34,665 bases of DNA, taken from positions 1 through 34,665 of the forward strand of contig JAUWXM010000003.1 in NCBI GenBank assembly GCA_030616365.1, in the 5' to 3' direction. Under the pieces are notes generated by a model. The model saw nothing but the letters and a program-made list of their open reading frames with translations, was not told the origin of the DNA and did no database searches. Numbering within the stretch: position 1 is the stretch's first letter; each line of letters opens with the position of its first letter. This DNA comes from a bacterium (GTDB lineage: Bacteria; UBP18; UBA7526). Shown piece by piece: positions 1 through 19,901 of the stretch. Made by a program: the position numbers and the translations under genes.

Positions 1-535
1 GGAAGAGGGCGGTAAAGACGCTGTTCTTCATCCACTTATCTGGCCCGTTTACCACCCGGCTGGCAAAGAGCATAATCCAGGGTAGCCAGCATTGTCCATA
101 ATACTCCATAGCCCCCTCAGCAATTCTTAAGGGGAAATGGCTGCTAAACATAAAGACCAGAGCCGCCAAGTAGGCTCCCCTGGTGTTAATGCCCCACTCG
201 CGAGCGAGTTTAAAGGTTCCTATCAGGCCAATGATCGTGCAGGCCACGATTACCAATTTTATACCTGCCACCGGACCAAATAACAGAATTAAGGGAAATA
301 AAGGAGACAGGCAGGAAGTGGCCACGTTTCCAATCCTCGGTATTCCACCACCCACATAGGGGTTCCAGAGCGGCCATTGACCATATTTCAGAATGCTATC
401 CCGTGCTCCCGCAGCCTGGAAGGCATGCGGATCCCAATCATGAATACCCCAGTAATGGATGTGAGATAAGATAGGCGCCAGAAAAAGAAGGGCCAAGAGA
501 GAAAAGATTACAATATGTAAGTAAACGTTTTTCAT
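1..535 (-). CDS. YfhO-like / GT-C fold membrane glycosyltransferase, 3' end outside the window (not in ORF track)
   Basis: Manual translation from ATG at 535 gives MKNVYLHIVIFSLLALLFLAPILSHIHYWGIHDWDPHAFQAAGARDSILKYGQWPLWNPYVGGGIPRIGN... and stays open to the window edge. It has an N-terminal TM helix, an acidic DWD loop, a PLWNPY..GG.P motif and further TM segments. Confidence 0.75.
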   Translation of the reverse strand, partial: MKNVYLHIVIFSLLALLFLAPILSHIHYWGIHDWDPHAFQAAGARDSILKYGQWPLWNPYVGGGIPRIGNVATSCLSPLFPLILLFGPVAGIKLVIVACTIIGLIGTFKLAREWGINTRGAYLAALVFMFSSHFPLRIAEGAMEYYGQCWLPWIMLFASRVVNGPDKWMKNSVFTALF

Positions 536-557
536 ATATTGACCTTTTTTAATTAAT

Positions 558-586
558 AGTATAACATATATAAACAAAAAGTTCAA
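558..586 (-). promoter_or_regulatory. sigma70-type promoter for the GT-C gene
   Basis: Minus strand reads TTGAAC (586-581), 17 nt, TATACT (563-558), with an extended -10 TG. Confidence 0.55.
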
Positions 587-17566: not shown

Positions 17567-18579
17567 CTGCTTGTCCTATGGAAAGCCCTTAGCCATTGAT
17601 AGACCACCTTGGGATTAAGAGCGAAGAGATAGTTGTACTCTGTGAAACAACTGGCGGCGCAGGCCTCACAGGGGATATTCTCTAAGGCCAGGAAGGCGTT
17701 TCTAAAACCAACCTCTAAGAAGTTTAAGGCGGGAGATTCCTCTATTAAAAGGGAGCAGCGATAAACCCTACCATCGGTATCAACATTGCAGTAGAGTTTG
17801 CCCGCCAAGCAGGGTAGGCCGTAATTCCTATCCCGGGAAACCGGTCTCTGATAATCCGGCCAACGAAGGAGGTATTTCAGGTAGTTGGTGGAGGAAGCGA
17901 CTCGCGCTCCTTCTCTTTTTAGGTGGAGTATCTTTCGGATGGCCTTCTGTAAATCCCCAGGGGAAGGGGATAATTCTTTAAGATTGCGGCCCAATTTTTC
18001 ATTATGATGGAGGATTTGGAAGGTGCTCATCAGACCATATCTCTCGGCTGTCTTTAAAATGAAATTAATGGCTCCCAGATTATACTTGGTGAGGACGGTG
18101 ATGGTCCAAGTATTGAGGTGCTGAGAGGCCACTTCTATCCCCTCCATGGCTTTAGAAAAACTCCCCTTCCCCCGATTGGCCTCATGGGCTATGCGGTCCC
18201 CGTCTAAGCCAATCACGATATGACCTAAGTTCTTCAGGCTCTCCATCTTCTCCGGAATCAGGAAGCCATTGGAATCCAGGGTGACATATAATCCTTTACC
18301 CGAAGCATAATCGATAATCTGCCTAATATCATCCCTTAATAAGGGTTCCCCGCCCCAGAGCCCTAATCTCTGGGTCCCGGCCTGGACCATCTGGTCAATG
18401 AGGCTGAATATTTGGTCCATGGATAGCTCCTTCTGTCTTCGCTGAGGAAACCGGCAGTATGAACAGTGGGCTGGACAGCGATTGGTCACAGAGAGCATAA
18501 CATTGAGGGGCTTTCTTTTTTTAAAAAGCCGGTAGGCTAAGGCCCCCCAACCCATCTGGAATTTATTCTTCCATCTCAT
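17563..18579 (-). CDS. Radical SAM protein with Twitch/SPASM-like domain
   Basis: CPAHCSYC, WGGEPLLR, DSNG; C-terminal CLAG...DGRVYRC...CEACAASC. Confidence 0.9.
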   Translation of the reverse strand: MRWKNKFQMGWGALAYRLFKKRKPLNVMLSVTNRCPAHCSYCRFPQRRQKELSMDQIFSLIDQMVQAGTQRLGLWGGEPLLRDDIRQIIDYASGKGLYVTLDSNGFLIPEKMESLKNLGHIVIGLDGDRIAHEANRGKGSFSKAMEGIEVASQHLNTWTITVLTKYNLGAINFILKTAERYGLMSTFQILHHNEKLGRNLKELSPSPGDLQKAIRKILHLKREGARVASSTNYLKYLLRWPDYQRPVSRDRNYGLPCLAGKLYCNVDTDGRVYRCSLLIEESPALNFLEVGFRNAFLALENIPCEACAASCFTEYNYLFALNPKVVYQWLRAFHRTSR

Positions 18580-19901
18580 CCTTTATCACCCGATTTAGCC
18601 CGGATGACTTGAGAAGCCACCCGAGAGGCCATCTCGATACATTCATCCATGTTATTATACCAGAAACTTCCTGAACGACCAGCAATGACTAAGTTGCTTA
18701 TTCGGGAAAGGTCTTTCTTTATCTGGGTCAATCTTTGGGGATAATCAATACGATAGATGGGATAGGCCTCAGGAATCCTTTGATAATGGAAACCCATTAT
18801 CTCCTCCTTCCTCCCTATTAGACCTACCTTCATGAGATCAGCAAGTACTCTATCCTTTAAACCCCGATAATTTTGCCAATAATCGTCTCCCTTCTGACAT
18901 AGGATTTCCAAGCAGAGGCCTGATTGGCCGGAAGGGGCAGCTGATTCATTGAAGAGGGATGGTTGGCTCACCCGACTAAATATGACCTTAGGGTCTCCAT
19001 AATAGCACCATTGATAAGGAAGGAGAGGAGGATGGTTTACCTCCAAAAGATAGAGTAGAAGAGCTCTATATTCTAGACCTCTGGACGGGATTTGTAGCAA
19101 TGAACAGAGGCTGGTGAGGGGGGCGGTCCAGATCACCCTTTCCACTGGCCATCTTTTTCCTTGAATAGAAACGGTCTTTATTCTTTCTTTAGATATCTTG
19201 AATTTTTCCAGAGGATGAGAGACCAATATTTCTCCTTCCAAATCTTTGATCTTCTCGGCCAAAATTTCGCAGAAGGAACCCATCATTCCTTTGGGATAGA
19301 TGAATTTTAAAGAAGCAGCGGGAGGAAAAAGGGCCATTCTGATAAGCCCTATCAGACCTCGTGGGGCGACCTTTTCATTTATTACTGCCTTGATAATCCC
19401 CATCTGGGCCCAGGTAGCGTGTGTCTCTTCGGAAGGAATACCCAAGAATTTCTGGGTATAGTCTCTGAAAAAGACCTCATAGAGGGTGGAGCCATACTGG
19501 TGGAGAATATAATCTCTGAAACTTCTCTCCGGGCCTTTACCCTTAAACCTCTGAGTAATGACATCCCGTGCGGCTCTCAGGGTAATGGGAAGGGGGAGCT
19601 TAAAAAGAGCCTGGGGCTGGAGAGGCCAGGAGTAATAGCGATTGCCAAAATGAACTGCGGTTCGGCGCTCTAAAATTTTGCCTTCATCACCCAATACTTC
19701 TCGAATAAAAGCCAGGACCCTTTGATTATGGGTATAGAATCTATGGGGGCCGATGTCAAAGGTGAAATCTCCGTAGCGAAAACTCTTGGCCAGCCCGCCT
19801 ACCCGCTTCTCCTTTTCCAGAACCAAGACCCTTATCCCGGCCTGGGCTAAGAGATAGGCTATGGTCAGACCAGTTATTCCGGCCCCTACGATCAACACCA
19901 T
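18576..19901 (-). CDS. FAD-dependent oxidoreductase (protoporphyrinogen oxidase-like / UDP-galactopyranose mutase-like group)
   Basis: IVGAGITGL, LEKEKRVGGL, FDIGPHRF, AYPIY, GRSGSFWYNNMD. Confidence 0.88.
   Translation of the reverse strand: MVLIVGAGITGLTIAYLLAQAGIRVLVLEKEKRVGGLAKSFRYGDFTFDIGPHRFYTHNQRVLAFIREVLGDEGKILERRTAVHFGNRYYSWPLQPQALFKLPLPITLRAARDVITQRFKGKGPERSFRDYILHQYGSTLYEVFFRDYTQKFLGIPSEETHATWAQMGIIKAVINEKVAPRGLIGLIRMALFPPAASLKFIYPKGMMGSFCEILAEKIKDLEGEILVSHPLEKFKISKERIKTVSIQGKRWPVERVIWTAPLTSLCSLLQIPSRGLEYRALLLYLLEVNHPPLLPYQWCYYGDPKVIFSRVSQPSLFNESAAPSGQSGLCLEILCQKGDDYWQNYRGLKDRVLADLMKVGLIGRKEEIMGFHYQRIPEAYPIYRIDYPQRLTQIKKDLSRISNLVIAGRSGSFWYNNMDECIEMASRVASQVIRAKSGDKG

Follow-up and report, generated by a model that had tools for sequence, protein, structure and literature searches.

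A conserved gene cluster rich in radical S-adenosylmethionine (rSAM) enzymes, undescribed in the literature searched, occupies positions 720-19901 of the bacterial DNA analysed here (34,665 nucleotides of contig JAUWXM010000003.1 from assembly GCA_030616365.1, GTDB lineage UBP18; UBA7526; hereafter the window). It is a new combination of known enzyme superfamilies around g15, which represents a new branch of the Tes/GDGT-MAS superfamily of tetraether-lipid synthases. The core pair consists of g15, an rSAM enzyme predicted to adopt the GDGT-MAS fold, and g17, a flavoprotein of the amine-oxidase/UDP-galactopyranose mutase (UGM) type, usually accompanied by g16, an rSAM enzyme with a SPASM-like cysteine tail. 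To this core, lineages add modules: B12-binding rSAM enzymes, a heterodimer of the U32 family, DegT aminotransferases, GNAT acyltransferases, glycosyltransferases (GT) and membrane proteins resembling glycosyltransferases of the GT-C type. We put at about 0.5 the probability that the cluster tailors, independently of oxygen, a lipid-anchored envelope molecule, that is, a lipid-linked glycan or a glycolipid; its likeliest target is a sugar or glycan linked to polyprenyl phosphate, or else a glycolipid's head-group region.

The DNA comes from a tiny, uncultured bacterium of sediments whose assembly measures 1.12 Mb and is 76% complete; the window forms its contig C21, and the closely packed block belongs to a list of 17 genes (g01-g17, Table 1). 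A minus-strand operon runs from g17 to g06, from 19901 down to 5708, and a plus-strand block from g02 to g05 (720-5699) converges on it; genes overlap by 1-116 nt, most gaps measure 7-26 nt, and a single larger one measures 120 nt (12781-12900). Nine rSAM genes lie within 1-19901, six of them B12-binding, two with short SPASM-like cysteine tails and one, g15, resembling Tes and GDGT-MAS, and the CX3CX2C motif is intact in all nine proteins. A first-pass annotation made from the letters alone had reported these nine enzymes, the six B12-binding ones, their intact motifs and the overlapping or nearly touching genes, and Pfam together with a motif check bears it out; Pfam equally finds the GNAT, the GT2, the FAD oxidoreductase and the iron-sulphur (Fe-S) aldo-keto reductase that it had named. 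Since 9 of the 26 Radical_SAM matches of the whole assembly fall inside these 20 kb, the density of rSAM genes exceeds chance.

None of the nine rSAM enzymes reaches any curated NCBIfam cut-off. Domain scans of the open reading frames (ORFs) of the window reveal no polyketide synthase or non-ribosomal peptide synthetase (PKS/NRPS) and no transporter domains, and the gaps within the cluster hold no ORF above 40 aa, the longest (26-33 aa) making no convincing precursor of a ribosomally synthesised and post-translationally modified peptide (RiPP), again as annotated. The enzyme classes are oxygen-independent in kind, and no pathway of this composition was met in our literature search, which covered neither the supplements of PMC11214058 nor those of PMC8941075; it returned no paper combining ‘tetraether synthase’ with ‘U32’, and none combining a Tes homologue, a B12-binding rSAM enzyme, a glycosyltransferase and gene neighbourhood. 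These two points of the earlier annotation, the oxygen-independent chemistry and the lack of a characterised counterpart, therefore hold.

The block is not uniform. GC content shows a break at about 5.7 kb, where the 36-37% of g03-g05 gives way to the 45-47% of the minus-strand operon, and two pairs of paralogues bridge the break (g04 and g07 with 45% identity, g05 and g06 with 42%). This paralogy and the difference in GC suggest that the low-GC plus-strand block is a second, acquired copy of one module. Clusters of other phyla also contain the pair of PEMT-type methyltransferase and B12a, and the Fe-S reductase, so that the plus-strand block belongs to the system. In an independent assembly from another study (run X2), short contigs cover 30 of 30 bins, and no listed piece spans the GC break.

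The enzyme that defines the cluster, g15, matches the Pfam family Zn_ribbon_HMPTM with 69.1 bits and aligns with GDGT-MAS (structure 7TOL) over residues 4-285 with an E-value of 5e-44. Its AlphaFold model, with a predicted local distance difference test score (pLDDT) of 87.1 and a predicted template modelling score (pTM) of 0.89, overlays the four-domain GDGT-MAS fold along its whole length: Foldseek gives template modelling (TM) scores against 7TOL of 0.78 (query) and 0.71 (target) over 488 columns at 27% identity, and the second-best fold, MoaA, reaches 0.37. Across 12 sequences, C12, C15, C36 and H39, which form a rubredoxin-like set of three cysteines and a histidine, and the radical SAM (RS) cysteines C81, C85 and C88 are invariant, as are C303, C401 and C414 in the C-terminal region, where C244 is nearly so. 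However, g15 scores 150.3 bits on the Tes model NF045702 (cut-off 450) and 188 bits on the TrsS model NF045646 (cut-off 490); the available part of PMC13188914 describes no function for TrsS. The [4Fe-4S] motif of three cysteines and one histidine in the N-terminal domain of Tes is not kept either: residues 37-80 hold no cysteine, and the cysteine-rich N-domain segment of 7TOL is an alignment gap. Metal sites and cluster ligands of Tes are described in a 2026 review of lipid rSAM enzymes (PMC13459092). Because of the shortfall against the Tes model and the missing motif, g15 is not a Tes orthologue and, judged from sequence and predicted structure, is a distinct branch of the Tes/GDGT-MAS superfamily on the same scaffold. 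The earlier argument that Tes couples lipid tails thus cannot be transferred to g15: although the fold is shared, its scores fall short of both the Tes and the TrsS model, and the N-domain motif is absent.

A true Tes elsewhere in the carrier genomes was considered and rejected. A six-frame search of the host genome (G000) gave no Tes over the cut-off, which three control archaea pass, and the same holds for five further carrier genomes (G001-G005), among them two archaeal ones with up to seven g15 paralogues. Metagenome-assembled genomes (MAGs) of Undinarchaeota (L054-L062, G004; DPANN) contain as many as seven g15-family paralogues, some of them in tandem, adjoining B12-binding and SPASM rSAM genes, and no bona fide Tes over the cut-off was found in these MAGs.

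Conservation of the cluster across MAGs was the check to which the first reading had pointed, and it is indeed conserved and co-evolving. The locus scan covered one genome per species and returned 68 loci; seven archaeal (L054-L056, L059-L062) and five distant ones (L068-L072) were dropped, and all counts, taken from tblastn maps, refer to the 56 bacterial loci that encode a relative of g15. The g17-type flavoprotein is the commonest partner of g15 (37 loci), followed by g16-type enzymes and at least one B12-binding rSAM enzyme (34 each), g08-type enzymes and U32 proteins (19 each), DegT aminotransferases (15), GT-C-like polytopic proteins (10), PEMT-type methyltransferases (6) and a two-subunit 2-oxoacid:ferredoxin oxidoreductase (5); g15 stands alone in nine. 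Where g15 is flanked by 4 kb or more in each direction (31 loci), the flavoprotein and B12-binding rSAM enzymes are each found in 24. In named MAGs from eight phyla or more, g15 is accompanied by these same families, gene order being conserved within clades, and four architectures match well-supported clades of a quick IQ-TREE phylogeny of g15 with SH-aLRT support. Type A, from MAGs with 70% GC, has four B12 genes and a g08-type gene divergent from g16-, g17- and g15-type genes. Type B, from Acidobacteriota, has a g12-type gene divergent from the same trio, which a GT-C-like gene follows. Type C, from MAGs labelled Omnitrophota or Planctomycetota, runs from the flavoprotein through an optional oxidoreductase, an optional DegT, the g16- and g15-type genes, U32 and its partner to B12 genes. 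Type D, from MAGs labelled Verrucomicrobiota, Lentisphaerota or Kiritimatiellota, is a minimal set of flavoprotein, g15-type enzyme, U32 and partner with a divergent DegT.

Two features of single loci may be recorded here. In 70%-GC MAGs labelled Rickettsiales, a label that is doubtful because of this GC content, an ORF of more than 3300 codons directly follows the g15 homologue and runs off the locus (L023:11358-21743, L029, L038); a link to PKS/NRPS through these giant ORFs was rejected, as they encode a SPASM rSAM domain fused to tetratricopeptide repeats (TPR) instead. In a MAG labelled Kofleriaceae (L046:11356-13902), a glycyl radical enzyme resembling pyruvate formate-lyase follows the g15 homologue.

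Within the GTDB phylum of the host, g15 is present in two of six genomes, namely the host itself and the source of locus L005 (88% identity), and in neither of two same-genus genomes (93% and 83% complete). Set against L005, DegT is missing from the window, and the GT2 and g11 (B12e) have been gained; L005 has a different B12 gene at another position. In the L005 genome, the cluster continues with a methyltransferase, a further SPASM rSAM gene, an orthologue of g05 (B12b), two membrane proteins resembling g01, one of them with TPR, and a YfhO-type protein. Since g15 is missing from same-genus genomes, the GC content differs and modules have been swapped relative to L005, the island is accessory, modular and horizontally shuffled. 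In run X3, one low-depth contig joins 10314 to 12941, skipping the GT2 and B12e genes; it extends for only 20 letters past the joint on one side and so gives a weak hint of an L005-like strain variant lacking both.

The genomic context points towards sugars. DegT genes, whose best NCBIfam matches are LegC and PseC, stand within the core of relatives; in Acidobacteriota loci, polytopic GT-C-like proteins with 8-11 hydrophobic segments come directly after g15; and in L021 the minimal core sits between Wzy_C, two GT4 genes and a Wzx-type flippase. Beyond the cluster, the window also holds g26 (Wzy_C-TPR) and g27 and g28 (GT-C-TPR), and the whole genome has three g27-type and three Wzy-TPR genes, of which two and one, respectively, are those of the window. 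Elsewhere in the same genome, contig C32 (L107:2908-19812, L108:1333-2640) carries a Wzx/Wzy-type polysaccharide locus, in which genes for a Wzy-TPR protein, a UDP-GlcNAc 2-epimerase and an rSAM enzyme resembling g12 (35% identity) are followed by Wzx, two GT4 enzymes and a g17-like flavoprotein; the B12-binding rSAM gene overlaps the end of the epimerase gene by 4 nt. Further genes of the locus encode a heparinase II/III-like protein, an asparagine-synthase-type amidotransferase and a transglutaminase-like protein. The closest solved structures, although distant, also belong to sugar enzymes: UGM for g17, AprD4 for g12 and BlsE for g16. Among 125 neighbouring ORFs of the loci, some of which are probably spurious calls in high-GC loci, there are three LPG_synthase_TM, two GT2 and two Wzy_C matches, and no family for the synthesis of fatty acids, ether lipids or isoprenoids is among the 25 commonest Pfam families. 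A target in a sugar or head group is favoured because of DegT, the GT-C-like proteins, the Wzx/Wzy/GT4 setting of L021, the Wzy-TPR and GT-C-TPR proteins of the window and the C32 locus. A polyprenyl-phosphate-linked sugar would reconcile the lipid and the glycan lines of evidence, since its isoprenoid chain suits a Tes-type pocket and its sugar suits the other enzymes; for this reason we prefer a lipid-anchored glycan or glycolipid and regard the remodelling of hydrocarbon tails as unlikely. The first-pass annotation had offered either a membrane lipid or a lipid-linked glycan as the substrate; the latter, or a glycolipid, fits the context better, and the heavily modified bulk membrane lipid, as it was worded, fits less well, the cluster being accessory and lipid-synthesis families being missing from the 25 commonest of its neighbourhood.

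On the reading of a lipid-anchored glycan or glycolipid, we speculate that the lipid-binding architecture of g15 would grip a long isoprenoid or alkyl anchor and that a C-C bond would be made or primed by way of a 5'-deoxyadenosyl radical, the C-terminal cluster assisting. The flavoprotein g17 may oxidise or desaturate one position, which in relatives DegT would aminate and the GNAT would acylate, while the six class-B (B12-binding) rSAM enzymes could methylate unactivated carbons or rearrange them in the manner of HpnJ or AprD4. The U32 pair would hydroxylate without oxygen, by analogy consuming prephenate and releasing phenylpyruvate, which in five relatives the oxidoreductase could turn into reducing power for the rSAM enzymes. 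Finally, the membrane GT2, the PEMT-type methyltransferase and the Fe-S reductase would complete the molecule, and the flanking GT-C and Wzy-TPR proteins may transfer it outside the membrane.

Several observations weigh against this reading. Every statement about the substrate is inferred, because no enzyme reaches a curated family cut-off, and the sole characterised structural relative of g15 works on hydrocarbon tails and not on sugars. Glycan-related families are a small minority of the 125 neighbouring ORFs, in which no family dominates, and no glycan genes are found among the six ORFs scanned on contig C20 of the same genome (L109:148-17407), which carries four B12-binding rSAM enzymes, two amine-oxidase-type flavoproteins and an AAT-family acyltransferase. 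Domain scans of the window find neither a Wzx flippase nor an initiating phosphoglycosyltransferase nor a gene for the synthesis of nucleoside diphosphate sugars; the window also lacks DegT, the only homologue in the genome lying on another contig beside pilus-type secretion genes. Type A loci have neither U32 nor DegT, although the related L025 has a distal DegT, and what they carry instead is a SPASM rSAM domain joined to a TPR stretch of over 3000 residues. The similarities to UGM, AprD4 and BlsE are remote, and the choice of structures solved so far may be their only cause. The co-occurrence of oxidoreductase and U32 is confined to related lineages and hence is not independent evidence, and chorismate mutase (PF01817, PF07736) was not found in the 76%-complete assembly, which is not evidence of absence; chorismate synthase is present.

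The strongest rival, which we nevertheless hold to be unlikely, is that the cluster remodels the hydrocarbon tails of a membrane lipid into branched, bridged or membrane-spanning forms, such as glycerol dialkyl glycerol tetraethers in their branched form (brGDGTs), branched glycerol monoalkyl glycerol tetraethers (brGMGTs) and ‘overly branched’ lipids. Here g15 would couple tails, g16 would cross-link them as Gms does, the B12-binding enzymes would methylate, cyclise or desaturate, and the flavoprotein and the U32 pair would bring in unsaturation and a hydroxyl group. The full GDGT-MAS architecture of g15, with its rubredoxin-like site, RS motif and three invariant C-terminal cysteines, speaks for it, as do the membrane PEMT-type methyltransferase, the C20 locus with its four B12-binding enzymes and two amine oxidases, and the anoxic habitats of the carrier lineages, which include Acidobacteriota and Planctomycetota. 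The tailoring of archaeal GDGTs uses exactly these enzyme classes: Grs, Gmm, the GDGT methylases and Ted are B12-binding rSAM enzymes, Gms is a SPASM rSAM enzyme and Has belongs to the phytoene desaturase family (PMC11214058; 10.1101/2025.10.20.683597). The archaeal genes (Tes, Gms, Gmm, GrsA/B, methylases, Ted, Hgs, Has) are, like those of the window, often clustered and act without oxygen on inert carbons, and g15 is predicted to share the whole fold of GDGT-MAS. In contrast, the B12-binding members of the window fall below the cut-offs of all lipid enzymes, hydroxylation would here come from a U32 pair and there comes from Ted plus Hgs, and the hosts are bacteria with a glycan-like gene context.

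The bacterial literature bears on the same rival. Tes homologues of bacteria have been proposed, unassayed, as the source of brGDGTs (PMC8941075, PMC11868695, PMC13459092), and Garcia et al. (2024, PMC11214058) describe gms-tes and gms-mss clusters of Acidobacteria, Planctomycetes and candidate phyla, in which, as here, a Tes homologue is paired with a SPASM rSAM enzyme; bridged membrane-spanning lipids are their proposed products. However, according to the bioRxiv version, their Gms homologues share about 46% identity with the archaeal enzyme (E-value about 1e-140) and bear a COG4001 extension, which g16 and g08 lack, and the available part of that paper mentions no accompanying flavoprotein, U32, DegT or B12 sets. 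Its criteria for Gms are at least 400 aa and an N-terminal COG4001 extension of about 100 aa before the rSAM domain; an identity of g16 or g08 with Gms was accordingly rejected, these proteins having 338 aa and 349 aa, an rSAM domain that begins at residue 30 and 26, respectively, and no N-terminal extension. Tail remodelling is further disfavoured by the 150 bits of g15 on the Tes model and its missing N-domain motif, and by the island being missing from same-genus genomes, which would be unusual for a bulk membrane lipid. The neighbouring ORFs offer no lipid-synthesis family among their commonest 25, the DegT, GT-C-like and Wzx/Wzy neighbours would require an extra story for the head group, and neither B12 nor SPASM genes occur in the minimal cluster of the Planctomycetes-Verrucomicrobia-Chlamydiae (PVC) type.

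A broader proposal, which we regard as rather doubtful, is that the g15 family might be a third Tes/GDGT-MAS branch, spread over bacteria and DPANN archaea, that builds envelope amphiphiles not seen so far, together with an obligate flavoprotein partner and with B12-binding rSAM, SPASM, U32 and DegT modules that differ between lineages. Such molecules would be glycolipids with isoprenoid or alkyl anchors whose chains might be C-C bridged, C-methylated, hydroxylated without oxygen and aminated, although this is equally doubtful.

It is improbable that the product is a soluble specialised metabolite or cofactor made under anaerobic conditions, resembling an aminocyclitol, an aminoglycoside or an aromatic quinone, to which the membrane proteins are mere neighbours. 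Aminoglycoside pathways do combine DegT enzymes, twitch rSAM enzymes, B12-binding rSAM methylases, AprD4-type rSAM enzymes, flavoenzymes, GNATs and glycosyltransferases, and the patchy distribution of the cluster resembles that of a biosynthetic gene cluster. The closest solved structures to g12 and g16 are AprD4 (E-value 2.4e-20) and BlsE, both distant, and the U32 enzymes known so far act on aromatic or heteroaromatic rings (PMC10990095, PMC11574389). Yet the window contains no exporter or resistance gene, the predicted fold of g15 is that of a lipid enzyme, the GT2 and the PEMT-type protein are embedded in the membrane, GT-C-like partners recur, and no prenyltransferase or decarboxylase of a quinone pathway was seen in scans of the window; moreover, genomes of 1.1-1.4 Mb are unlikely to belong to antibiotic producers.

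That the block is not one system at all, and that independent rSAM genes have merely accumulated in a genome rich in them (at least 11 class-B rSAM enzymes, counting C20 and C32), seems very improbable. The two other loci that combine B12-binding rSAM enzymes with amine oxidases, the GC break at about 5.7 kb and the few relatives in which the GT2, g11, GNAT and aldo-keto reductase each occur would fit such an accumulation, but the families recur with g15 across at least eight phyla in conserved order, architecture follows the g15 tree, operon genes overlap, and the PEMT-B12a and reductase modules lie inside the clusters of other phyla. Least probable is the maturation of a proteusin-like RiPP encoded elsewhere, on which B12-binding C-methyltransferases, SPASM cross-linkers and an oxygen-independent hydroxylase would work: NCBIfam matches to ApyD (g11 127.5 bits, g12 169.4 bits), the RiPP C-methyltransferase model TIGR03975 and SPASM peptide maturases, all far below their cut-offs, and the type A SPASM rSAM domain fused to a very long TPR protein are set against gaps without a precursor-like ORF, a window without protease or ABC exporter (ABC and FtsX matches among the neighbouring ORFs being untraced to loci), and DegT, GT2, GT-C, flavoprotein and g15-fold enzymes that are ill-suited to a peptide.

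If a lipid-anchored glycan or glycolipid is indeed the target, its hydroxylation would fall to the U32 pair. The match of g14 to the NCBIfam UbiU model reaches 96.6 bits against a cut-off of 440 and covers residues 1-189 only; eight cysteines are invariant. For g13, whose true start is probably some 30 codons downstream of the annotated position, there is no Pfam or NCBIfam match, and a comparison with the U32 profile in hhalign is weak (probability 50%, E-value 1.6e-4); an Atlas lead (0.81) points to a cluster with PF01136 in 37% of its members. C60, C218, C236 and C240 are invariant in 13 sequences, and the gene directly follows the U32 gene in all 15 loci in which it was detected. The predicted complex of g13 and g14 has an interface score (ipSAE) of 0.93, the highest among three controls being 0.00; its runs agree in at least 91% of contacts, and the partner pLDDT is at least 84. 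The predictor's mark is reached by 58 of 80 solved complexes and by 2 of 110 mismatched pairs. Since to our knowledge no UbiU-UbiV complex has been solved, this prediction is unlikely to have been memorised, and it supports the formation of a heteromer. Of the UbiU/V-like pair of the first annotation, g14 is borne out by its Pfam match, and g13 is a putative second member, tied to U32 by the weak hhalign match, the Atlas lead and the predicted complex.

Like UbiU-UbiV with UbiT, TrhP and RlhA, the pair would be a heteromeric U32 Fe-S system with conserved cysteines and presumed anaerobic hydroxylation. It differs in its distance from UbiU, in g13 being too diverged for Pfam, and in lying in an rSAM/glycan-type cluster rather than in a quinone or RNA context; no UbiT-like SCP2 gene was seen. 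Twelve U32 subfamilies exist, most of them uncharacterised, and the proposed mechanism converts prephenate into phenylpyruvate as a co-product (PMC10990095). The two-subunit oxidoreductase, with TPP_enzyme_C, POR_N and Fer4 domains plus a POR subunit, occurs in five loci, all of which carry U32. We take it, from domain architecture, to be of the indolepyruvate or arylpyruvate type. It could recycle phenylpyruvate into reduced ferredoxin for the rSAM enzymes, an idea that is only a lead because the co-occurrence lies within related lineages.

The six B12-binding enzymes (g04-g07, g11, g12) carry both the B12-binding and the Radical_SAM Pfam domains over cut-off, and none reaches the equivalog cut-off of HpnJ, BchE, HpnR, TIGR04072, PhpK, ApyD, AprD4, Mmp10 or others. 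Their best score against a named class-B family is that of g12 on HpnJ (191.9 bits, cut-off 577.6), a model that is among the top NCBIfam matches of g04, g06, g07 and g12 (95-192 bits); g04, with its motif at residue 212, scores best on BchE (185.7 bits, cut-off 481), and TIGR04072, ‘ladderane-type lipid’, gives at most 152 bits against 360. Clusters of the antiSMASH ‘ladderane’ type in phyla other than the anammox bacteria are described as still unexplained (PMC9902471). Orthologues of g12 (44-52% identity) occur across clades and those of g06 (44-48%) in type A and type C loci, and in genome G006 an orthologue of g05 (53%) converges on the cluster. In the two SPASM-like enzymes, the cysteine patterns GX4C and CX2CX3C are found, and C-terminal cysteines are conserved: C257, C264, C275, C304, C307 and C311 in g16, with relatives in 34 loci, and C266, C284, C318, C321 and C325 in g08, the latter across 16 sequences and with relatives in 19 loci. 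Yet Pfam reports no SPASM domain at E<=0.001, and the Twitch/SPASM label, for which the six and five conserved cysteines speak, is a putative one. The best NCBIfam match of g16 is the PTO1314 family (104 bits, cut-off 306), and the AhbD model gives only 80.9 bits.

Two sets of known pathways resemble the cluster in part. The hopanoid side-chain pathway (HpnH, HpnI, HpnK, HpnJ, HpnO) and archaeal calditol synthase share with it a sugar added to a lipid by a GT2, a class-B rSAM rearrangement after the logic of the HpnJ ring contraction, and an aminotransferase branch; unlike them, the cluster has no squalene-hopene cyclase and no HpnH-type match over cut-off, and its Tes-fold enzyme and U32 pair have no counterpart there. 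The 4-amino-4-deoxy-L-arabinose (Ara4N) pathway (ArnB, ArnC, ArnT) and Wzx/Wzy O-antigen loci share DegT, a membrane GT2 of the polyprenyl-phosphate type, GT-C enzymes and a hypervariable, accessory nature. A Wzx/Wzy locus differs in that the window has no Wzx, initiating transferase or sugar-nucleotide genes, the full set being found in L021 and C32, and we know of no rSAM, U32 or Tes-fold enzymes in Ara4N or O-antigen pathways.

The remaining genes complete the inventory (Table 1). The best NCBIfam match of g17 is PRK07208-type (233.8 bits, cut-off 380), and its closest solved structures are UDP-galactopyranose mutases, with an E-value of 1e-11 over the N-terminal 170 residues only. For g03, which had been called ICMT-like, PEMT scores 44.2 bits (cut-off 25) and ICMT 20.9 bits (cut-off 24). 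A gene of this type stands beside a g04-type rSAM gene in L007, L008, L017, L025 and L034, and within the L006 cluster; relatives of g02 with 43-49% identity lie inside the L007 and L018 clusters. The GT-C assigned to this range corresponds to g01, which is possibly GT-C-like: its truncated ORF has hydrophobic segments, and the GT-C_AftD match comes from an orthologue and is sub-threshold (E-value 0.0015, 17 bits, cut-off 26). Orthologues of g01 with 77% (the one with this match) and 73% identity lie just past the cluster in G006; one relative carries C-terminal TPR, and another with 36% identity adjoins a flavoprotein gene in L020. Relatives of g10 occur in one locus and not in L005.

Table 1. 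Genes g01-g17 of the cluster, with positions in the window.
Gene	Positions	Strand	Description
g01	2-586	-	Polytopic membrane protein, N-terminal part, cut by contig end; hydrophobic segments
g02	720-1850	+	Aldo-keto reductase fused to 4Fe-4S dicluster; Aldo_ket_red 131.9 bits, Fer4 families
g03	2121-2753	+	Integral-membrane PEMT/ICMT-type methyltransferase; four hydrophobic segments
g04 (B12a)	2722-4173	+	Class-B rSAM, paralogue of g07; B12-binding 83.7 bits, Radical_SAM 64.4 bits
g05 (B12b)	4170-5699	+	Class-B rSAM (Pfam), paralogue of g06; CX3CX2C at residue 208
g06 (B12c)	5708-7243	-	Class-B rSAM, final gene of minus-strand operon; CX3CX2C at residue 209
g07 (B12d)	7243-8655	-	Class-B rSAM; CX3CX2C at residue 210; below all NCBIfam cut-offs
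g08 (SPASM1)	8663-9712	-	rSAM with short SPASM/twitch-like cysteine tail; Radical_SAM 93 bits
g09	9709-10302	-	GNAT acyltransferase; Acetyltransf_1 42 bits; relatives in 4 of 56 loci
g10	10313-11371	-	Membrane-anchored GT2, accessory module; Glycos_transf_2 114.8 bits; C-terminal hydrophobic segments
g11 (B12e)	11344-12780	-	Class-B rSAM, accessory module; CX3CX2C at residue 197
g12 (B12f)	12901-14349	-	Class-B rSAM, most widely conserved B12 member
g13	14376-15266	-	296-aa U32 partner, UbiV-like in size and in four invariant cysteines
g14	15151-16242	-	U32-family Fe-S protein, UbiU-like; Peptidase_U32 120.7 bits
g15 (TesL)	16217-17566	-	rSAM, predicted GDGT-MAS/Tes fold; Zn_ribbon_HMPTM and Radical_SAM; defines the cluster
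g16 (SPASM2)	17563-18579	-	rSAM, core partner of g15; Radical_SAM 81.6 bits
g17 (FADox)	18576-19901	-	Amine-oxidase/UGM-type flavoprotein, first gene of operon; Amino_oxidase 79.8 bits, NAD_binding_8 69.5 bits

Next to the operon lies a PaaX-like gene (20000-20896), which was considered as a phenylacetyl-CoA-sensing regulator of the cluster and rejected, no relative being found in the 56 loci; its relative in G010 stands beside pilin genes on a contig without cluster genes. A block of three pseudopilin genes with N-methyl motif and a small membrane protein is conserved between the window (26102-28167) and this contig (C7 of G010, L103), where it is linked to the regulator. Between PaaX and the pseudopilins of the window lie the repeats and g19-g21, which encode an unknown protein of 510 aa, a PD40 protein and a HEAT-repeat protein. 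Intergenic sequences at 20897-21980, above all at about 21130-21375 and 21510-21660, comprise short elements (about 60-250 nt) with copies of 70-97% identity on dozens of contigs across all five related genomes, and look like a dispersed repeat family. They have no Rfam match at the gathering score, the scan of the whole window at gathering thresholds giving none either, and a pattern scan of the window for promoters and terminators gave counts not above those in shuffled sequence.

Bacterial Tes-like rSAM enzymes serve as markers of brGDGT producers, none of them assayed. A Tes-fold enzyme in an accessory context of glycan type implies that surveys built on loose homology to Tes may over-call lipid producers. 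If, on the other hand, hydrocarbon chains are the target, the cassette could be the genetic source of orphan branched, bridged and ‘overly branched’ tetraether-type lipids of anoxic sediments, and would bear on the biological sources of tetraether palaeoclimate proxies. Here, too, a U32 heterodimer is part of a biosynthetic cluster, in five relatives beside an oxidoreductase that possibly consumes phenylpyruvate, which makes a falsifiable link; should the g15 family prove to be a third Tes/GDGT-MAS branch, this would be the first U32 hydroxylase acting outside quinone and RNA chemistry. The cluster thus bears on how anaerobes with genomes of 1-1.5 Mb diversify their surfaces.

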